The notes beneath the pieces were generated by a model that saw only the letters and a program-made list of their open reading frames with translations, had not been told where the DNA came from and made no database searches. A stretch of 36,636 nt of DNA from a virus. Lineage: Duplodnaviria; Heunggongvirae; Uroviricota; Caudoviricetes. The stretch lies in the IMG/VR virus record IMGVR_UViG_2778261643_000013; one strand, written 5' to 3'. Below, piece by piece: positions 21,214-35,745 of this stretch; the stretch's first letter is position 1, and each line of letters begins with the position of its first letter. The translations under genes and the position numbers were made by a program.

Positions 21214-21429
21214 TTACTCTCCCCGTGCAGCCTTACGCTTGTCTTCTCTGATTTTGAAGTACAGATTTGTCAGATAAGTCAGGAAGCCCAGAACCAGACT
21301 CCCCAGTACACCAATCGCAGCCCACTGTGACGGACTGACCTGATCAAGCCACTGTAAAAACCAGTAGCCAGCACTGCCTGCGGAGGTGCCGTAGGCAATG
21401 CCCGTTGAAATTTTGTCCATGGATTTCAT
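21214..21429 (-). CDS. S: Class II holin (phage 21 S-type pinholin), dual-start
   Basis: 71 aa [29 protein letters not shown]... with Met1 and Met4 starts, two TM helices. Confidence 0.85.
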
Positions 21430-21589
21430 AGCCTCACCTCCGCAAATAACGGATGGCGTAGTTTTACACTGAGAAATGAAAGGGATTTGAAAAGAAAAAA
21501 CCGCAAAAGCGGGCGAAACGATATATACAGAAAGGAAAGCACTCTATCCAACAAACCACCCACAGTTAATCGGAATAAAAGCAGAGTGC

Positions 21590-21662
21590 TTATGAATGAT
21601 CGCCTGCCCGAAGGTTAGTATTTCTGCACAGCAATTTTGCAAAAAAAGGCGATCATTCATAA
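21590..21662. repeat. Perfect 16-bp inverted repeat (TTATGAATGATCGCCT) separated by 41 nt
   Basis: Arms at 21590-21605 and 21647-21662 are exact reverse complements. Confidence 0.6.
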
Positions 21663-21721
21663 CTTAAACGTCTTTCAGTCACTCCGGGATTTCCCATCAT
21701 CGCAGACTGAAAGACTCTAAC

Positions 21722-21796
<75 letters not shown>

Positions 21797-21799
21797 ATA

Positions 21800-21875
<76 letters not shown>

Positions 21876-21877
21876 AC

Positions 21878-21954
21878 TGGACCGCCACCGGGGACTCGAA
21901 CCTCGCACACTCAACTTAAAGGGTTGACGCTCTTTCCTGATGAGCTAGTGGCGG
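21878..21954 (-). tRNA. tRNA-like gene of uncertain identity (anticodon loop CCUUUAA)
   Basis: 77 nt; perfect 7-bp acceptor stem, normal D and T arms, 5-bp anticodon stem; positions 34-36 read UUU but position 33 is C and discriminator is U. Confidence 0.55.
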
Positions 21955-21955
21955 C

Positions 21956-22031
21956 TGGTGGCCCTTGCTGGATTTGAACCAGCGACCTGGCGATTATGAG
22001 TCGCTCGCTCTCACCACTGAGCTAAAGGGCC
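21956..22031 (-). tRNA. ileZ: tRNA-Ile2 (anticodon CAU, ileX/ileZ-like)
   Basis: 76 nt; anticodon loop CUCAUAA; closely resembles E. coli ileX rather than elongator tRNA-Met. Confidence 0.75.
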
Positions 22032-24780: not shown

Positions 24781-24936
24781 TTACTCCTCAGGTTCGTAAG
24801 CTGTGAAGACAGCGACCTCCGTCTGGCCGGTTCGGATTCGTACCTCGCAGAGGTCTTTCCTCGTTACCAGTGCCGTCACTATGACGGTTAAACAGATGAC
24901 GATCAGGGCGATTAGCATCGCCTTTTGCTGCTTCAT
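24781..24936 (-). CDS. hokD: Hok/Gef-family type I toxin
   Basis: 51 aa MKQQKAMLIALIVICLTVIVTALVTRKDLCEVRIRTGQTEVAVFTAYEPEE; AAGGAG SD; single TM. Confidence 0.85.
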   Translation of the reverse strand: MKQQKAMLIALIVICLTVIVTALVTRKDLCEVRIRTGQTEVAVFTAYEPEE

Positions 24937-25170
24937 AGCCTGCTTCTCCTTGCCTTTCGGCACGTAAGAGGCTAACCTAGATTTGCCGTTCATAGATTGA
25001 GCCTCAGATTAATGTTAAGCGTCTTGCAGGACGCGTAATGTTAACTGGGGCTTTTCTCTATCTGCCTTTTGGTGTTCATGCCTGAGGCAGATAGCCTCAA
25101 GCACCCGCAGCAATTTTACTTAACTCCCGCTACCTCGCCAATATGAAATCAATAAGAAAGGTGCTCCATA
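24937..25170 (-). promoter_or_regulatory. hok mRNA leader / presumptive Sok antisense region
   Basis: In-frame upstream reading frame (mok-like) and a 9-bp stem (CTATCTGCC/GGCAGATAG) with 19-nt loop at 25058-25094. Confidence 0.4.
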
Positions 25171-25173
25171 AAA

Positions 25174-25860
25174 TCACTCCTTCTCTTCTTTACCGTAGTG
25201 GAGTTGACCAATTTTGATAAGAGGGCGTCCCTGAGATTTGCGGTGTAGATTGGTATCGCGCAGAGAATACACACAGCCACAATATTCCTGCTGATAGAAT
25301 TTTTCGCGCTTGCTGATTTCAATCATGCGGGACGAGCCGCCCTGCTTGCGCCAGTTATAATCCCAGTACACCATGCCCGGATAATGCGCGACGGCTCGCC
25401 GCCCACAGTCGTTAACCTGCTGCATATTTTTCCAGCGTGAAATGCCCAGTGAACTGCTGATCACACTGAAACCATTTTCAGCAGCGTACAGCGCTGTCCG
25501 CTCAAAACGCATGTCAAAACACATGGTACAACGGATCCCCCTCTCGGGCTCCCATTCCATTCCTTTGGCACGTTCAAACCAGTTGTCTGTGTCGTAATCA
25601 GCATCAATAAATGGCACGCCGTGTTGTTCAGCAAAGCGAATATTCTCATCCTTACGAATTAAATACTCTTTCTGAGGATGAATGTTCGGGTTGTAGAAAA
25701 AGATGGTATAGTCGATTCCCGAGGCCTGAAGCGCCTCCATCACTTCACCGGAACATGGAGCACAGCAAGAGTGCAGTAGTAGTTTGTTTGCCCCGTTTGG
25801 GAGCTCCAATTTAGGCCGTTTGAAATCAGCAATAGTCATAAATATTTTTATTGGGGTCAT
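25174..25860 (-). CDS. QueH-like protein (DUF208, epoxyqueuosine reductase family)
   Basis: 228 aa with [15 protein letters not shown] and YCGCVYS cysteine motifs typical of QueH; start codon uncertain. Confidence 0.65.
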
Positions 25861-26480: not shown

Positions 26481-27701
26481 TTACCCCCTGAAGCCCGGCG
26501 GAATTTCGTTATCCGGTTCAGAAATATGATTCACACAACGCTGGTTGTTCGTGCCGCTTACCGGGAGCAACCAGGGGTTCTCAAAATTCCGGTCCGGTCC
26601 AAAAAACGTCGTCGCTCGCTGAACAAATTCCGTTCCCGTTTTCCCGGTAGCCGCCAAGTATCTTGCGTAACGCCTCACGCCATCCAGCATGGCCTCTGGT
26701 GGCACCCCCTCGCGCAATCTGGCCTTCCAGGCACTGAATGCGGATTTCTTCGGGTTTGCCCCGGCACGCAACGGGTATTCCCGCCAGACCTGTTCGAACA
26801 CATCCGGATAATCCACTCGTCCCACAGGCCGCCCGGTGTTTTCCGGGACTACCCGATCGGCTTCCCGCTGAATGGCGGAATCGGCTTCAGGCTGCTGCAG
26901 TTGGTGTGATTGCTCCGGCCTTGCGGTCATCACCTGCTGCACAGCACCCGAATCGGCTTTCAGCGCATACGCTGAATCGGCTTCCGGTGTCGTGCCTGCT
27001 GGCTGACCAGGATTGACGGTCTGAACATCCCCTGCCTGGTTCGTGGTGTTTTTTTCGCCATGAACCATAGTGTTTTTGTCCTGTTCCTGTTCTTTCTCCT
27101 GCTCCTGTTCTTGGCTTCGAAGCCCCTTAAAAGCCCCTTCGAAGCCCCTTACCGAATTTCGGCTATTATTCCGCCTCACATCCAGATGGAAATCCGTTTT
27201 ATATCTGTCGTAAAACGCTGACAGAAAAGCGTTTTCAGGTAATGATGCATACTCATTCCTGACACCTGCACAACGGTTATCGCCAGGCTTCAACGTTTCC
27301 CCAACCTGCCAGGCTGCCATTTCATGGACCCAGACCATCTCGGCATCATGGTCATAGCTACAAAAACCAGCTTCAACAGCCATTTTAAGCCCCTTTGAAG
27401 CCCCTTCCAGACCAAGCCCGGTTTCATGAGCAAGGTATAAAACTGGCAGGTAATACAAACCCAGCATATTTGCGTGAGGGGATGTCATCAGGTAAAAAGC
27501 AACAACTTGCGCTTCTGCACCCGCCTTTCTAAGTTCTCTCCCCGTTTCTCCCAACCAGAATCGCGGAGAAACTTTTGCGTAATCACGCATGGCTACCTCA
27601 TCTGGTGCCGAACCTTCCTCCGGATATAATCTGTGGTTCCCAATCGACAGAACCAGAGGAGGTTCGACATGTATTTTTTGAAAAGCCTTTATCAGGCTCA
27701 T
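26481..27701 (-). CDS. Putative replication initiation / replisome organiser protein
   Basis: 406 aa in the slot after cro/cII-like genes; internal acidic EQEQEKEQEQ linker and repeated GFEGAFKGL peptide motifs; no Walker A. Confidence 0.45.
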   Translation of the reverse strand: MSLIKAFQKIHVEPPLVLSIGNHRLYPEEGSAPDEVAMRDYAKVSPRFWLGETGRELRKAGAEAQVVAFYLMTSPHANMLGLYYLPVLYLAHETGLGLEGASKGLKMAVEAGFCSYDHDAEMVWVHEMAAWQVGETLKPGDNRCAGVRNEYASLPENAFLSAFYDRYKTDFHLDVRRNNSRNSVRGFEGAFKGLRSQEQEQEKEQEQDKNTMVHGEKNTTNQAGDVQTVNPGQPAGTTPEADSAYALKADSGAVQQVMTARPEQSHQLQQPEADSAIQREADRVVPENTGRPVGRVDYPDVFEQVWREYPLRAGANPKKSAFSAWKARLREGVPPEAMLDGVRRYARYLAATGKTGTEFVQRATTFFGPDRNFENPWLLPVSGTNNQRCVNHISEPDNEIPPGFRG

Positions 27702-27807
27702 GTATTAAATGTTACAGCAACAAACCGCTGGTGTAACAGCCCCGAAATGCTCCCGGATTACAGAGCCTGGCTGCGCGCCGAAACATACCTTCGTCTCGAC
27801 ATATTGA

Positions 27808-28317
27808 TTAGCGAACTTCAAAAAGAGACTGCATCCATTCATAACCTTCAGGGTATCGACGCTGTTCGCATTCTGGTGTCGCGCCATAGTGCTCTCTCAA
27901 TAATTGAAGTGCGTCATCTCTCTTTTTCTGAACTGATTTTCTTGCTTCAACCAGCTCTGGAATCAGCGAATATCCCACCGGAAGTGATCCAATACCCACC
28001 TCATGTTGACGAGCAGTTACAAGATGTGCCATACAACCAGCGTGCTGGATTGACTCCCTGCTCAGAGGCTGAATGGGATCACTCTCTGCTGAAGAAATAC
28101 CAAGATTTGTATAATCCTCAATAAGCCCGGCACACGCTTCTGCATCAGCCAGCTTTATTCTGGTTTCCTTGCGCTGTTCTCTGGCTGACAAACGCCAGAG
28201 CAGCGCATTAGCTTTATGTATCAACCACTCTGCCAGCTCCACATCAGATAAACCGCCACGCCAGATGTGCGGACTGTTTTCGTAAACGCTCAGTGTCAAT
28301 TTTTTGTCATTACTCAT
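27808..28317 (-). CDS. Hypothetical protein (169 aa)
   Basis: ATG at 28317 just after the stop of the upstream gene; the longer ORF starts with GTG inside that gene. Confidence 0.45.
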   Translation of the reverse strand: MSNDKKLTLSVYENSPHIWRGGLSDVELAEWLIHKANALLWRLSAREQRKETRIKLADAEACAGLIEDYTNLGISSAESDPIQPLSRESIQHAGCMAHLVTARQHEVGIGSLPVGYSLIPELVEARKSVQKKRDDALQLLREHYGATPECEQRRYPEGYEWMQSLFEVR

Positions 28318-28330
28318 ATTTATTACCCAA

Positions 28331-28756
28331 TTAATGCACAGCCAGAGTGTTTCCTGCCGGGCCACCACGATTCATCTGATCGAACAGAACGATCGCTGAT
28401 GCAACGAAATCATCAATATCTTTCACCAGCCGTTCCTTCGTCTCTACCAACTCCCGAAAATAAGCGGAACTGTGGCTGCGCATTCGGGCCACCAGCGGAG
28501 GCGGCATCGCTTTTTCGATCGCTGGTAACAACGCCTGAATTTTTTTAACCGCATCAGGAGTGTCTTTCTCCACCCAGCGGAAAATTTTCTGGGTGTTACG
28601 GCCCAGGGCTTCCGGATGGCTGTCGTCGTACAGTTCCGGGAACGTCATACCCAGTTCGAAATACGCTTTGGTAATTTTCGCAGCCGGTACTTTCTCGCCG
28701 TCTGGATGCGCCCAGGCATTCATCGCCATGCGGATGTGTTCATGCTTGATTTTCAT
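28331..28756 (-). CDS. YdaT-like protein (CII-position regulator)
   Basis: 141 aa; ATGA-coupled to the Cro-like gene, as ydaS-ydaT in Rac. Confidence 0.5.
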   Translation of the reverse strand: MKIKHEHIRMAMNAWAHPDGEKVPAAKITKAYFELGMTFPELYDDSHPEALGRNTQKIFRWVEKDTPDAVKKIQALLPAIEKAMPPPLVARMRSHSSAYFRELVETKERLVKDIDDFVASAIVLFDQMNRGGPAGNTLAVH

Positions 28757-29055
28757 GAATCAACTCCATCAGATAAGCATGCACTACAATCACCTTCAGC
28801 ATGAACTACATGTGTTTGCCCCAAACGAATGCCGCTCGCATACTCAGGCCAAATAAGCTCCCAATCATGGGGTCGTAGCTCCGCCCTACTTACTTGGCCT
28901 TCCGTCGCAGATTCGATCATAAGGGCGCGGGTTGGAGATATAGCTGCTCGTCCAGACGCCATTTGCGATAAGTAAGATGGCGATACACCAAGTCTGGCCG
29001 CGAATTTCTTAGCATCACCAACCCTCAATGATTTAATAAACTCTTTTAATGTCAT
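28753..29055 (-). CDS. Cro-like HTH regulator (YdaS family)
   Basis: 100 aa; HTH ...LGVSPSYLSQMASGRAAISPTRALMIESAT...; GAGGAAGG SD; divergent from the repressor. Confidence 0.75.
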   Translation of the reverse strand: MTLKEFIKSLRVGDAKKFAARLGVSPSYLSQMASGRAAISPTRALMIESATEGQVSRAELRPHDWELIWPEYASGIRLGQTHVVHAEGDCSACLSDGVDS

Positions 29056-29151
29056 ACCTTCCTCGGTTTAGTGTTTTTTGCGAGTTTAGTGTTTAATAAA
29101 CCATTAAGTCAAGTATTTGCTTGTTTAGTGATTACTAAAGATAATTACCAC
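29056..29151. promoter_or_regulatory. Immunity-region operator/promoter segment (PR and PRM with GTTTAGTG repeats)
   Basis: GTTTAGTG at 29066, 29084 and 29123; PR -35 TTGACT / -10 TAAACT on minus; PRM -35 TTGCTT / -10 GATAAT on plus ending 6 nt before the repressor ATG. Confidence 0.5.
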
Positions 29152-29523
29152 ATGCAAAAAAAAGAAATTCGCCGTTTACGTCTCAAGGAGTGGTTTAAAG
29201 ATAAAACTCTGCCACCCAAAGAGAAGAGCTACCTATCTCAACTAATGAGTGGGAGAGCCTCGTTTGGAGAAAAGGCTGCCAGAAGAATAGAGCAAACATA
29301 CGGGATGCCGGAAGGGTATCTGGATGCGGAATACGCAGAACAACCGGAGGTTTCTCTACCACATGCAGGGTTAACGTCTAATCAACTGGAATTATTGCAG
29401 ATTTTTTCAGCCTTCCCTGAGGATGAGCAACGCCAGATAATCAGCGAGTTAAAGCAGAAAAAAGAATCAATGGAAGATCTCATAGCGAGATGGATTGCGG
29501 CGCAAAAATGCCGCCGCGCCTGA
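29152..29523 (+). CDS. Prophage repressor (HTH_XRE, RacR-like), probably leaderless
   Basis: ATG at 29152 without SD; HTH ...EKSYLSQLMSGRASFGEKAARRIEQTYGMPEGYLD... Confidence 0.7.
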   Translation: MQKKEIRRLRLKEWFKDKTLPPKEKSYLSQLMSGRASFGEKAARRIEQTYGMPEGYLDAEYAEQPEVSLPHAGLTSNQLELLQIFSAFPEDEQRQIISELKQKKESMEDLIARWIAAQKCRRA

Positions 29524-29543
29524 GTTATAAAACCGGAGGAAAC

Positions 29544-29735
29544 ATGAATAGAGCCCTTTCACCAATGGTTTCTGAATTTGAAACCATTGAACAAGAAAAC
29601 AGTTACAACGAATGGCTGCGTGCGAAAGTAGCAACGAGCCTTGCAGATCCGCGCCCAGCAATTCCCCATGACGAAGTTGAGCGCAGAATGGCAGAACGCT
29701 TTGCTAAAATGCGCAAGGAACGGAGCAAGCAGTAA
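29544..29735 (+). CDS. Type II antitoxin (ParD/RelB-like)
   Basis: 63 aa; strong SD GGAGGA; ...WLRAKVATSLADPRPAIPHDEVERRMAERFA... antitoxin-like. Confidence 0.6.
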   Translation: MNRALSPMVSEFETIEQENSYNEWLRAKVATSLADPRPAIPHDEVERRMAERFAKMRKERSKQ

Positions 29736-29736
29736 A

Positions 29737-30015
29737 ATGTTACCCGTGTTATGGCTTGAAAGCGCAGATACCAACCTAGATGATATAACTAGTTATATTG
29801 CTCGTTTCGACATAGATGCGGCTGAACGCTTATGGCAGCGATTAAGGGGTTGTGTGCTGCCGTTATCCGAACATCCGTATTTATACCCACCAAGCGACAG
29901 AGTACCTGGCTTGCGTGAGATTGTAGCCCACCCTAACTATATAATTCTATACCGCGTAACAACATCAAGCGTTGAAGTAGTAAACGTGATCCACGCAAGA
30001 CGCCAGTTTCCCTAA
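29737..30015 (+). CDS. Type II toxin (ParE/RelE family)
   Basis: 92 aa starting 1 nt after the antitoxin stop; ...GLREIVAHPNYIILYRVTTSSVEVVNVIHARRQFP is ParE-like. Confidence 0.65.
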   Translation: MLPVLWLESADTNLDDITSYIARFDIDAAERLWQRLRGCVLPLSEHPYLYPPSDRVPGLREIVAHPNYIILYRVTTSSVEVVNVIHARRQFP

Positions 30016-30086
30016 CTTTCACTACCAATAGAAACATAACAACCGCAACGACTTTATCAAAAGCGTTGTGTTTGTTACGCCCCGCG

Positions 30087-30127
30087 GTTTAGTTTTTACT
30101 TGACTTAAGTTTAATGTTTATTAAACT
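30087..30127 (+). promoter_or_regulatory. Candidate PL-type promoter with operator half-sites
   Basis: GTTTAGTT at 30087, -35 TTGACT (30100-30105), -10 TAAACT (30122-30127); same hexamers as PR. Confidence 0.4.
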
Positions 30128-30837: not shown

Positions 30838-31404
30838 TAGCTAACCAACGAAGCTAAGGTTGGTAATTAAGGAGTTCTCCACGGGTGAGGTGGAGTGCGT
30901 GCGCCGGACACGGGTGAGCATCCGGCACTGACAGTTTACTGAAAGGATATTTCCATGAAAAGTCAGACCATAACGCGAAAGCGCACGGCGAGGTAGCTGG
31001 TTCATAGATAGCCTGTCGTTAAATTTTCGTCGACCGTGCGCTTCCGGTTGTGGCACTCCGCGAAATGACGCGGCGGTAAGTATGGCGGGGTTATTCCTTC
31101 CCCGTTGAGGACACCGGGTTGTCAGGTTGACCATACGCTTAAGTGACAACCCCGCTGCAACGCCCTCTGTTATCAATTTTCTGGTGACGTTTGGCGGTAT
31201 CAGTTTTACTCCGTGACTGCTCTGCCGCCCTTTTTAAAGTGAATTTTGTGATGCGGTGAATGCGGCTAAGCGCACGCGGAACAGTTAAAACCAAAAACAG
31301 TGTTATGGGTGGATTCTCTGTATCCGGCGTTAATTGTTAACTGGTTAACGTCACCTGGAGGCACCAGGCACCGCATCACAAAACTCATTGTTGAGGGCGC
31401 GATA
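30838..31404. other. 567-bp non-coding, GC-rich, highly structured region
   Basis: No credible ORF on either strand; multiple stems including a 15-bp long-range inverted repeat (31244-31258 / 31369-31383) and tandem GTTAAC palindromes near 31330-31350. Confidence 0.4.
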
Positions 31405-31593
31405 ATGAAAACGTTATTACCAAACGTTAATACGTCTGAAGGTTGTTTTGAAATTGGTGTCACTATCAGTAATCCTGTATTTACTGAAGATGCCATTAAC
31501 AAAAGAAAACACGAACGGGAGTTATTAAATAAAGTATGCATTGTTTCAATGCTGGCCCGTTTACGTCTGATGCCAAAGGGATGTGCACAATGA
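31405..31593 (+). CDS. Small protein (62 aa)
   Basis: ATG at 31405 with GAGGG SD; AT-rich. Confidence 0.45.
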   Translation: MKTLLPNVNTSEGCFEIGVTISNPVFTEDAINKRKHERELLNKVCIVSMLARLRLMPKGCAQ

Positions 31594-31874: not shown

Positions 31875-34316
31875 ATGAGCACTGATAAAGAAGAATTTGC
31901 ACTATATTGCGAAGCAAAAAATGACAAAGTAAGAAAACGCCTAGGAATTAAAGGTGGTTTTTACTGGACTACAGCAAAAAAATTATCTGTTGCAATCTCC
32001 CGCTGCATTACCGCAATGGATGACAACGATTATGATGAAGACGACTTTAAAAAACCCGTCCGCGTCAATTTGCCCGTTGTTGACGACCTTCCGCCAGAAG
32101 GCGTGTTTGATACTGAATTCTGCAACCGCTATGAAAAAGGCGGGAAAGATGGCATCACAATGACATTTATCGGCCCTTCCCCCTCTGTTCAGGACAAACC
32201 AGCCAGCACTGACAATACCAACATCAACGGCGAAGACATGACTGAGATTGAGGAGAGCATGCTTCTGCCTGTCTCCGGTCAGGAACTGCCCATTCGTTGG
32301 CTTGCTCAACACGGCAGCGAAAAACCAGTAACGCACGTTTCACGCGACGAACTCCAGGCATTACACATTGCACGGGCTGAAGAACTACCGGCTGTTACTG
32401 CCCTGGCTATTTCGCATAAAACCAGTCTGCTCGACTCGCTGGAGATTCGCGACCTCCACAAACTGGTTCGTGACACTGACAAAGTTTTCCCTAATCCTGG
32501 TAATTCAGACCTGGGACTAATAACTGCTTTTTTCGAAGCATACCTGGACGCTGACTACACTGATCGGGGTCTGCTGACAAAAGAGTGGATGAAAGGAAAT
32601 CGTGTTTCACGCATCACCCGCACGGCTTCCGGTGCTAATGCTGGCGGTGGGAACAAAACCGATCGCAATCCGAATTTAGTACACACCCTCGACACACTGG
32701 ATGTGGAGATTGCAGCAGCCACACTTCCGATGGATTTTAATATTTATGAAATTCCGGGCAGCGTTTATCGTCGCGCAAAAGAAGTAGTCCTGAACAAAGA
32801 AAGTCCGTTCAAAGAATGGTCCGCAGCACTTCGTGCAACCCCGGGTATTCTGGACTATTCCCGCGCCGCTATTTTTGCACTTATCCGAAGCGCACACCCT
32901 GAATTTTATCACTACCCGGGACGCCTTCAGGGGTATATCAACGCCTATTTGACGGAAACTGATCACGAGACCCCCAGCAAGGAAACTCTCACAGCTGCCC
33001 GGCATACGCCGGAAAAAGATATCCTGGAAGAAATTAACCGCGAGGTGGTTACTGAGCGTGAAACAGAAGAAGAAAAACCACAACCATCTGACGCAATGGC
33101 AGGTGAACAGGCAACAACTGAAACAATGGAACCGGATACAACTGAACATGGCCAGAACGCGCAGTCGCTGGATGCTCAGTCGCAGGTGAGTTCCGCTAAC
33201 CAAGTAAAAGTCACCGCTGACGAAGTAAACAAAATTATGCAGGCAGCCAATATCAGCCAGCCTGACGCCGATAAGTTACTTGCTGTATCGCGTGGTGAAT
33301 TTGTTGAGGGGATTAGCGACCCTAATGATCCGAAATGGGTCAAGGGGATCCAGACTCGCGATTCTGTGAACCAGAACCAGCATGAATCGGAACGGAACGA
33401 CCAAAAAGCGGAACAAAACAGCCCAAATGCGTTACAAAACGAGCCAGAAACGAAACAATCCGAACCAGTAGCGCAACAGGAACCGGAAAAAGTCTGCACC
33501 GCCTGCGGTCAGAGCGGTGGCGGCAACTGCCCTGATTGTGGCGCGGTGATGGGCGACGCAACATACCAGGAAACATTCGATGAAGAGAATCAGGTTGAAG
33601 TTCAGGAAAATGATCCGGAGGAAATGGAAGGCGCTGAACATCCACACAAGGAGAACCCTGGCGGCAATCAGCATCACGCCAGCGATAATAAAACTGGCGA
33701 GGCGACAGATCCCTTAATTAAGGTGAATGGTCATCATAAGCTCACATCCACCAGCAGAGCGGGGATTCATCTGATGATCGACCTTGAAACCATGGGAATA
33801 AATCCCGATGCCCCGATTATCTCAATAGGCGCAATATTTTTCGATCCACAAACCGGAGATATGGGACCGGAATTTAGCAAGACCATCGATCTGGATACTG
33901 CTGGCGGAGTCATTGATCGTGACGTCATTAAATGGTGGCTGAAGCAATCACGTGAAGCGCAGTCTGCCATTATGACCGATGAAATCCCGTTAGATGATGC
34001 ACTACTGCAATTGCGGGAATTTATCGACGAAAACTCCGGTGAATTTTTTGTTCAGGTCTGGGGTAATGGGGCCAACTTCGACAACGTGATTTTACGCCGT
34101 TCATACGAACGACAGGGTATCCCCTGCCCATGGCGCTACTGCAACGATCGCGATGTACGCACAATCGTTGAGCTGGGGAAAGCCATAGACTTCGATGCCA
34201 GAACTGCTATCCCATTCGAAGGTGAGCGCCATAATGCACTTGATGACGCTCGTTACCAGGCAAAATACGTTTCAGCTATCTGGCAAAAACTGATCCCGAG
34301 TCAGGCTGATTTTTAA
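31875..34316 (+). CDS. Large multidomain protein: RecE-N-like region, zinc ribbon, C-terminal DEDDh 3'-5' exonuclease
   Basis: 813 aa; CTACGQSGGGNCPDCG zinc ribbon (33496-33543); C-terminal MIDLETMG, WGNGANFD and HNALDDARYQ exonuclease motifs (33760-34313); occupies the exo/recE slot before xis-int. Confidence 0.7.
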   Translation: MSTDKEEFALYCEAKNDKVRKRLGIKGGFYWTTAKKLSVAISRCITAMDDNDYDEDDFKKPVRVNLPVVDDLPPEGVFDTEFCNRYEKGGKDGITMTFIGPSPSVQDKPASTDNTNINGEDMTEIEESMLLPVSGQELPIRWLAQHGSEKPVTHVSRDELQALHIARAEELPAVTALAISHKTSLLDSLEIRDLHKLVRDTDKVFPNPGNSDLGLITAFFEAYLDADYTDRGLLTKEWMKGNRVSRITRTASGANAGGGNKTDRNPNLVHTLDTLDVEIAAATLPMDFNIYEIPGSVYRRAKEVVLNKESPFKEWSAALRATPGILDYSRAAIFALIRSAHPEFYHYPGRLQGYINAYLTETDHETPSKETLTAARHTPEKDILEEINREVVTERETEEEKPQPSDAMAGEQATTETMEPDTTEHGQNAQSLDAQSQVSSANQVKVTADEVNKIMQAANISQPDADKLLAVSRGEFVEGISDPNDPKWVKGIQTRDSVNQNQHESERNDQKAEQNSPNALQNEPETKQSEPVAQQEPEKVCTACGQSGGGNCPDCGAVMGDATYQETFDEENQVEVQENDPEEMEGAEHPHKENPGGNQHHASDNKTGEATDPLIKVNGHHKLTSTSRAGIHLMIDLETMGINPDAPIISIGAIFFDPQTGDMGPEFSKTIDLDTAGGVIDRDVIKWWLKQSREAQSAIMTDEIPLDDALLQLREFIDENSGEFFVQVWGNGANFDNVILRRSYERQGIPCPWRYCNDRDVRTIVELGKAIDFDARTAIPFEGERHNALDDARYQAKYVSAIWQKLIPSQADF

Positions 34317-34374: not shown

Positions 34375-34578
34375 ATGAGCAGCTTATTTTTAACCGAAGA
34401 TGAATTGCTAATATTAACGGGCTGCAAATATGCAAGCCACCAGCGAAAATGGTTAATGGAAAACGGGCTTCCGTTCTATACCAATCGTAGTGGCAAACCG
34501 ATTGTCAGCCGGGATCTATTTACCTGCAATAAAACTTTACCACCACGCGAGGTAGAGCCGAATTTTGGTGCGATCTGA
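34375..34578 (+). CDS. xis: Excisionase-like protein
   Basis: 67 aa immediately upstream of int with ATGA overlap. Confidence 0.6.
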   Translation: MSSLFLTEDELLILTGCKYASHQRKWLMENGLPFYTNRSGKPIVSRDLFTCNKTLPPREVEPNFGAI

Positions 34579-35603
34579 TGGGAAGACGAAGGAAAAATCC
34601 TGAACACGAAAAATTACCTCCAAATGCATACCCAAATAAATATAGTTATGTATGGAAACCAACATCCAGAGAATCTGTCACACTAACCGCCATCAAGGAT
34701 GGTTTAGCTGCTTTATGGAAAAAGTATGAGGAAACTGTAAATAATCGCGATCGTGCAATGACATTCGGTCGCTTGTGGGAAAAATTCCTCGCCAGCGCCT
34801 ATTACAGTGACCTTAGTCCAAGAACACAAAAAGATTATCTGCAACATCAAAAAAAGTTGCTTGCCGTATTCGGTAAGGTACCAGCGGATTCCATAAAACC
34901 AGAACACATCCGTCGATACATGGACAAAAGAGGGGAGCAGAGTAAAACACAAGCCAACCATGAAAAAAGCAGTATGTCCCGTGTTTACAGTTGGGGGTAT
35001 GAGCGAGGGTACGTCAAGGCTAACCCATGTGCAGGTGTAAGTAAATTCAAGGCCAAAAACCGCGAACGATATGTAACCGACAAAGAATACCAGGCAGTAT
35101 TAAGCGTTGCACCTCTTCCTGTTTTTATCGCAATGGAAATTGCCTATCTGTGTGCAGCGAGGGTTTCCGATGTGTTATCGCTGAAATGGGAACAGATTGG
35201 AAACGACGGGATATTCATCCAGCAAGGGAAAACCGGAAAAAAACAGATAAAAGCATGGAGTCCACGATTACAGGCAGCGATCGAAAAAGCAAAACAGTTA
35301 CCAAAATCTGCCTATGTGATCAGCAATCAATACGGCAACCGATATATGTACAAAGGCTTTAACGAAATGTGGGTAGAAGCAAGAAATCGTGCTGGAAAAA
35401 TTTCAGGTATTTTAACCGACTTCACCTTTCATGATCTGAAGGCGAAAGGAATTTCAGACTATGAAGGAAGCAGCCGGGATAAGCAACTTTTCTCTGGTCA
35501 CAAAACCGAAGGGCAAGTGCTAATCTATGACAGGAAGGTTAAAGTTTCACCAACACTTGATGTCCCGTTACCTGAAAATATTCCAAGAAAATATTCCAAG
35601 TAA
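34578..35603 (+). CDS. int: Tyrosine-type site-specific integrase
   Basis: 341 aa; catalytic ...ARVSDVLSL..., ...HDLKAKG..., ...VLIYD... ; adjacent to the tRNA 3' end. Confidence 0.9.
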   Translation: MGRRRKNPEHEKLPPNAYPNKYSYVWKPTSRESVTLTAIKDGLAALWKKYEETVNNRDRAMTFGRLWEKFLASAYYSDLSPRTQKDYLQHQKKLLAVFGKVPADSIKPEHIRRYMDKRGEQSKTQANHEKSSMSRVYSWGYERGYVKANPCAGVSKFKAKNRERYVTDKEYQAVLSVAPLPVFIAMEIAYLCAARVSDVLSLKWEQIGNDGIFIQQGKTGKKQIKAWSPRLQAAIEKAKQLPKSAYVISNQYGNRYMYKGFNEMWVEARNRAGKISGILTDFTFHDLKAKGISDYEGSSRDKQLFSGHKTEGQVLIYDRKVKVSPTLDVPLPENIPRKYSK

Positions 35604-35655: not shown

Positions 35656-35745
35656 TGGCGGAGAGAGGGGGATTTGAACCCCCGGTGGAGTTGCCCCCAC
35701 TCCGGTTTTCGAGACCGGTCCGTTCAGCCGCTCCGGCATCTCTCC
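35656..35745 (-). tRNA. serU: tRNA-Ser (anticodon CGA), integration target
   Basis: 90 nt with long variable arm; anticodon loop CUCGAAA; 3' end faces int. Confidence 0.85.

Follow-up and report, generated by a model that had tools for sequence, protein, structure and literature searches.

A paaR2-paaA2-parE2 toxin-antitoxin module in the rexAB-equivalent position of the immunity region of a phage Evi-like Escherichia coli prophage

The locus described here lies in a 36,636-nucleotide stretch of DNA (referred to throughout as the window) from a virus of the Caudoviricetes, IMG/VR virus record IMGVR_UViG_2778261643_000013. A first-pass annotation, made from the sequence alone, had placed an antitoxin-toxin pair with a 1-nt intergenic gap at 29544-30015, directly downstream of a repressor gene and upstream of a PL-like promoter. 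The pair is borne out by the list of open reading frames and the raw sequence, by Pfam, and by an identity of 99-100% to the solved PaaA2 and ParE2 proteins, and its location between the repressor gene paaR2 and the promoter is likewise correct (Table 1). The gap is exact and consists of the single base A29736. The antitoxin gene, paaA2, begins 20 nt 3' of the end of paaR2, and the toxin gene, parE2, ends 85 nt ahead of the PL-like promoter.

Table 1. Genes, promoters, operators and the putative terminator of the immunity region in the window
Feature	Position	Strand	Details
ydaT-like gene, CII analogue	28331-28756	-	Pfam YdaT_toxin, E=1.3e-9
YdaT operator OM, TTGATTTTCATGAATCAA	28746-28763		ydaS/ydaT junction; exact match to the published 5'-TTGATTN6AATCAA-3'
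ydaS-like gene, Cro analogue	28753-29055	-	Pfam YdaS_toxin, E=3.9e-12; HTH_3, E=1.4e-6
OR region, divergent PRM (+) and PR (-)	29056-29151	both	operator half-sites GTTTAGT at 29066, 29084 and 29123
PR-like promoter	29112-29083	-	TTGACT, 18 nt, TAAACT
paaR2, HTH repressor, CI analogue, first gene of the operon	29152-29523	+	123 aa; TGA stop 29521-29523
paaA2, antitoxin	29544-29735	+	63 aa; ATG 29544, TAA 29733-29735; GGAGG Shine-Dalgarno sequence at 29535-29539
parE2, ParE-family toxin	29737-30015	+	92 aa; ATG 29737, stop 30013-30015
Stem-loop just 3' of parE2, upstream of PL	30036-30078	+	from RNA folding; possible operon terminator
OL/PL, leftward early promoter region	30087-30127	+	two operator half-sites, at 30087 and 30109
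PL-like, sigma-70-like promoter	30100-30127	+	TTGACT, 16 nt, TAAACT

The two small proteins were compared with family profiles and with solved structures. Over all 62 aligned residues (62/62, 100%) the antitoxin is identical to PaaA2 of PDB entries 3zbe, 5cw7 and 5cze. It matches the Pfam family PaaA2 (PF21217, E=1e-19), which is the only Pfam family obtained at E<=10, and also NCBIfam NF050103 (E=5e-24). The toxin is identical at 91 of 92 residues to ParE2 of PDB entries 5cw7_B, 5cze and 5czf, with N13 here and D13 in the solved protein, and it covers the complete ParE_toxin profile (PF05016, E=2.2e-15, positions 1-89 of 89), no further Pfam family being matched at E<=10. When the full-length proteins were compared with those of the locus in E. 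coli O157:H7 strain TR01, the identities were 63/63 for PaaA2, 91/92 for ParE2 and 120/123 for PaaR2; the YdaS and YdaT proteins match those of CP-933P in the same strain at 99/100 and 121/141 residues. Judged by sequence, the antitoxin and toxin are PaaA2 and ParE2 as found in the E. coli O157:H7 prophage CP-933P.

The label ParD/ParE-like, under which the pair was initially described, holds for the toxin, which belongs to the ParE family, but fails for the antitoxin. No ParD or RHH family was found in the antitoxin in Pfam even at E<=10, and an assignment to the ParD family was rejected in favour of the PaaA2 family. The literature on the CP-933P module describes PaaA2 as being without any DNA-binding motif (PMC8630535). 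As a family name ParD does not fit, since PaaA2 is devoid of a DNA-binding domain; it is PaaR2 that takes over regulation, and the system accordingly has three components. A toxin of the ParE family, a short PaaA-type antitoxin lacking a DNA-binding domain, and an upstream HTH gene on the same strand (order R-A-E) are all present, and the locus shows every defining feature of a PaaR-PaaA-ParE three-component type II toxin-antitoxin system that can be tested on sequence. Canonical ParD-ParE systems (RK2; Caulobacter, 3kxe; V. cholerae ParDE2) resemble it in the ParE fold and family of the toxin, with a weak match to 3kxe (E=1.8e-4), and in an antitoxin that neutralises through a disordered segment folding on binding. 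PaaA2 differs from a canonical ParD in having no RHH DNA-binding domain and in leaving autoregulation to a separate repressor, and ParE2 differs from the canonical toxins in that binding to GyrA59 and inhibition of gyrase have been reported as negative (PMC10886550).

The repressor gene was found to start at the ATG at 29152 (MQKKE) and not at the GTG at 29071 of a longer listed open reading frame. PaaR2 of CP-933P has the same N-terminus, MQKKE, and its mRNA is leaderless (Jurenas et al. 2021, PMC8630535). The N-terminal domain of the window protein is identical to that in PDB entries 7nkv, 8c3k and 8c3l ('Phage repressor protein CI', E=1.7e-39), and its three differences from O157:H7 PaaR2 fall on linker residues 66, 67 and 69. 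The divergent ydaS-like and ydaT-like genes were considered as a second toxin-antitoxin pair on account of their Pfam names, YdaS_toxin and YdaT_toxin; this was rejected, as the proteins have been published as Cro and CII analogues (PMC8630535, PMC9986795). In CP-933P, YdaS competes with PaaR2 at OR and OL (PMC8630535), and YdaT activates PRE, giving rise to an alternative paaR2-paaA2-parE2 transcript (PMC8630535, PMC9986795). Between the replication-initiator gene and ydaT, in the opposite orientation, lies an ECs1072-family phage-associated open reading frame (27669-28124, + strand), which is absent from the same position in O157:H7 CP-933P and in phage Evi.

The operators and promoters known from CP-933P were then compared with the window. 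Across the 36.6 kb there are five copies of the half-site motif GTTTAGTNNTTA, three of them at OR and the other two at OL, against an expectation of 1.0, and a count of 5 was reached in 0 of 100 shuffles. This half-site was used instead of the operator pattern GTTTAGTN5TAAAC, which gave no meaningful matches in the window. PR and PL have identical hexamers. The OR region differs from that of O157:H7 only by one nucleotide missing from a T-run (window 29078-29079), which makes it 96 bp rather than 97 bp long, and the OL/PL stretch is identical to that of O157:H7 and one base off (A30098G) in phage Evi. The YdaT operator was defined as TTGATTN6AATCAA by Prolic-Kalinsek et al. (PMC9986795), and the single zero-mismatch match to this pattern in the whole window is the site at the ydaS/ydaT junction. 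In CP-933P, the DNase footprints of PaaR2 and YdaS cover the 97-bp intergenic region with its GTTTAGTAA-type repeats, beyond parE2 lie OL operators and a PL whose -35 and -10 elements are identical, and PaaR2 and YdaS repress this promoter, PL933P, about 100-fold (PMC8630535). The published operators, promoter hexamers and YdaT site are all recognisable in the window. Divergent repressor and cro-like genes with common operators that are repeated at the distal PL, the arrangement of a lambdoid immunity region, are present.

Co-transcription of the pair with the repressor, which the first-pass annotation had thought probable, agrees with published work on the CP-933P module, whose proteins are 97.6-100% identical: there, paaR2-paaA2-parE2 forms one operon within the immunity region, and PaaR2 is the analogue of lambda CI (Jurenas et al. 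2021, PMC8630535). In the window, a search of the + strand from 29152 to 29544, that is, within paaR2, yielded no consensus promoter that could drive the toxin-antitoxin genes alone. The absence of such a promoter between the start of paaR2 and paaA2 is compatible with co-transcription, and it is accompanied by the two short gaps between the genes and the conserved OR. Downstream of parE2, the segment 30010-30100 folds as RNA with -20.4 kcal/mol (z=-3.27), and only 1 of 200 shuffles was as good; the stem-loop within it is kept in O157:H7 and in phage Evi. A consensus terminator scan after parE2 called no terminator, the stem-loop being passed over because it is without a clean T-run. It is nevertheless a possible terminator of the paaR2-paaA2-parE2 operon.

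The module, including the analogy of its position to the rexAB slot, is already known from the literature of 2010-2023. The paaR2-paaA2-parE2 locus in CP-933P/Sp12, a cryptic prophage of E. coli O157:H7, is reportedly also the subject of Hallez 2010 and Sterckx 2016. CP-933P/Sp12 and the window have the same three genes in the same order and spacing, and the same PR, PL, OL and YdaT operator, with the 1-nt difference in OR. They differ in their surroundings, since the prophage of the window is Evi-like, has head genes of the HK97 type and is integrated at tRNA-Ser beside mtfA, whereas CP-933P of O157:H7 lies near ynfA and has an IS-disrupted exonuclease. The RecE-like exonuclease gene of the window (31875-34316, + strand) is intact and encodes 813 aa; the copy in CP-933P of O157:H7 TR01 is split by IS1203. 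For the O157:H7 proteins it has been established that ParE2 inhibits growth, that PaaA2 neutralises it and that PaaA2 is protease-labile (PMC8630535). The CP-933P locus is bistable (PMC8630535). Overproduction of ParE2 induces SOS, and ParE2 activity was detectable in neither of the two transcriptional states (Jurenas et al., PMC8630535). As a stabiliser of an unstable mini-F plasmid the locus equalled ccdAB, acting through ClpAP- and ClpXP-dependent post-segregational killing (PMC8630535). PaaA-ParE and PaaR are described as repressing independently (review, PMC4803016).

In our reading, the window very probably carries, within the immunity region of an Evi-like lambdoid prophage of E. coli, a paaR2-paaA2-parE2 three-component type II toxin-antitoxin system that acts as published. 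During lysogeny, PRM would give rise to a leaderless paaR2 mRNA that runs on through paaA2 and parE2, and a second route of transcription, from PRE, may be provided by YdaT as CII analogue. PaaA2, a short disordered protein, would wrap around ParE2 and neutralise it within a large hetero-oligomer, while being subject to degradation by ClpAP and ClpXP. Upon loss of the operon the antitoxin would decay and leave free ParE2, a nucleoid-associated, SOS-inducing toxin, and the freed toxin would arrest growth, amounting to post-segregational killing or addiction. The biological role is most likely the stabilisation of the immunity region or the prophage against loss or replacement.

For the operon, the regulation by PaaR2, YdaS and YdaT, the toxicity, its neutralisation, the Clp dependence and the plasmid stabilisation, this model draws on the literature on the 97.6-100% identical proteins, and the window itself contributes the identity of all parts and the conservation of promoters and operators. 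We infer both that the published steps hold in the window prophage and that stabilisation is what the module has been selected for. The window allele differs from the one studied by N13 for D13 in ParE2 (codon 13, 29773-29775), by the three substitutions in the PaaR2 linker, by the 1-nt shorter OR spacer and by 20 substitutions in YdaT. Prophage stabilisation had been suggested from the sequence at the outset, and plasmid data for the near-identical module, which stabilises replicons through post-segregational killing, speak in its favour; the stabilisation was seen on plasmids and not on the prophage itself (PMC8630535).

The distribution of the module was surveyed in 5,426 complete E. coli genomes and 50,697 phage records. 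Three complete E. coli genomes (KS-NP019, TK3046 and YC21-F17) share the 1.95-kb immunity module at 100% identity, and O157:H7 has it at about 96.4%; at least 80% of it is covered in 591 of the 5,426 genomes. Taken by itself, paaR2 is present in 593 of these genomes and the toxin-antitoxin pair in 633, so that paaR2 almost never occurs without the pair. The structural genes of the window are 95-98% identical to those of Escherichia phage Evi. The module is present in Evi as well, at 96.2% identity, and among the 50,697 phage records a ParE2 homologue was found in Evi alone. The parE2 gene of Evi (21406-21684 of locus L003; 24917-25192 of the record) is 98.9% identical and is unannotated in the GenBank record.

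The related phages Tritos and vB_EcoS-640R1 have the ydaT and PL-side flanks in common with the window, but their repressors differ and the interval from cI to PL is empty, which makes the toxin-antitoxin pair an accessory cargo of this slot. A PaaA/ParE pair of 90-95% amino acid identity stands behind a different, 132-aa XRE-type repressor in strain 2012C-4227 (L008, 2451-3358), and a pair that is 90-95% identical stands behind a PaaR2-like 123-aa repressor and this 132-aa regulator in tandem in GF60 (L004, 3167-4477) and 00-3076 (L007, 2110-3410). The PaaR2-like and the 132-aa XRE-type regulators have only their C-terminal ~50 residues in common, with 54% identity. These arrangements suggest an exchange of immunity specificities about a conserved anchor made up of the toxin-antitoxin genes and the oligomerisation domain.

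It may be argued from the same data that the pair is a purely selfish hitch-hiker, kept by addiction alone and of no benefit to phage or host, for which the slot merely supplies a promoter and a regulator. The empty interval between cI and PL in close phages with the same flanks and the occurrence of the cassette, at 90-95% identity, behind differing types of repressor would both be expected of such an element, as would the dependence on the phage repressor of a PaaA2 that lacks a DNA-binding domain, and the steady state in which no ParE2 activity is seen (PMC8630535). However, the cassette is kept at a DNA identity of at least 99% in 586 genomes, and we hold this explanation to be possible but rather unlikely. 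It is hard to tell from the stabilisation model, addiction being the mechanism of both.

In phage lambda, RexAB is a membrane-depolarising abortive-infection system. Its genes, in the operon cI-rexA-rexB, occupy the same slot as paaA2-parE2, directly 3' of the repressor gene and ending just before OL/PL, and like them are transcribed from PRM/PRE in lysogens. That the pair takes the rexAB-equivalent slot, as was noticed from the sequence, is explicit in PMC9986795, according to which it "replaces rexA and rexB", and is shown in PMC8630535. The two pairs have genomic position alone in common, and no sequence or family relationship: Pfam yields PaaA2 and ParE_toxin only and no homology to RexA or RexB, and PaaA2-ParE2, in contrast to RexAB, is a toxin-antitoxin pair of type II for which an addiction phenotype has been shown.

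The shared position raises the question of whether the pair, expressed from the repressor operon of the lysogen, serves mainly in abortive infection or superinfection exclusion, such that an infecting phage, by shutting off host transcription or depleting PaaA2, would release ParE2 and the infection would be aborted. Co-expression with the repressor in lysogens and a labile antitoxin (PMC8630535) are in keeping with this, and the module is not confined to cryptic prophages but occurs in the deposited genome of phage Evi too. We nonetheless consider it improbable as the main function, given that, besides the missing RexA/RexB homology, a PADLOC scan of all three proteins matched no defence-system model, that our literature searches found no paper on phage defence or exclusion by PaaA2-ParE2, and that the published phenotype is addiction; addiction and exclusion are not mutually exclusive. 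Since the module is present both in phage Evi and in an Evi-like prophage that appears largely intact, PaaA2-ParE2 could by analogy truly replace the function of RexAB in abortive infection or superinfection exclusion in a live temperate phage, and could also guard the immunity region, to which we assign a similarly low likelihood. That the two open reading frames are chance or decayed frames of a cryptic prophage, with no functional toxin-antitoxin system, has their small size and nothing else to recommend it and can be dismissed almost with certainty, being refuted by the Pfam matches and the near-identity to the solved PaaA2 and ParE2 structures, by two full-length frames with 99-100% identity to proteins whose expression, crystallisation and toxic or neutralising activity are on record, and by the Shine-Dalgarno sequence and the 1-nt coupling gap.

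The preferred reading, a stabilising toxin-antitoxin system, has parallels among other prophage-borne toxins of the ParE/RelE superfamily, namely ParESO/CopASO (Shewanella CP4So) and PfiT/PfiA (Pf4), which belong to other phages and hosts and which, going by the titles of the papers cited in PMC10886550, have been tied to prophage stability or phage production. As a near-identical copy of a module already characterised genetically, biochemically and structurally, the window locus matters little in itself. Its practical value is that the window prophage is close to phage Evi, whose genome record looks complete, whereas the copy studied so far is that of the defective CP-933P. Should Evi be viable and lysogenic, a copy in an Evi-related prophage would make the target of ParE2, its natural trigger, phage exclusion and the protection of the immunity region from recombination testable.

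The window differs from KS-NP019 by 21 mismatches over 28.3 kb, and by annotation transfer from that genome it makes up the greater part of a lambdoid prophage whose integration site is tRNA-Ser, beside mtfA. The integrase open reading frame (34578-35603) is uninterrupted, encodes 341 aa and appears intact; the annotation of the near-identical copy in KS-NP019 gives a frameshift. Adjoining the integrase frame of the window, and next to mtfA, is tRNA-Ser(cga) (35656-35745), which is probably the attachment site. Downstream of the toxin-antitoxin genes, the PL operon includes the DicF sRNA (31179-31230, + strand; Rfam, 76.7 bits) and dicB (31405-31593, + strand), both inhibitors of cell division, with ydfB, ydfC and DUF1391 genes alongside. 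A second toxin-antitoxin system of the prophage, of type I, lies at 24781-25106 on the - strand and consists of hokD (24781-24936, by annotation transfer) and the sok antisense RNA (24931-25106; Rfam RF01794, 114 bits). A QueH-family epoxyqueuosine reductase gene (25174-25839, - strand; annotation transfer) is carried by the prophage as cargo, with the replication genes on one side and hokD on the other. Four phage-borne tRNA genes (21722-22031, - strand) are located between Q and the lysis genes, namely Gly-tcc, Thr-tgt, Lys-ttt and one with a CAT anticodon, which is assigned to Met by ARAGORN and to Ile by PGAP.
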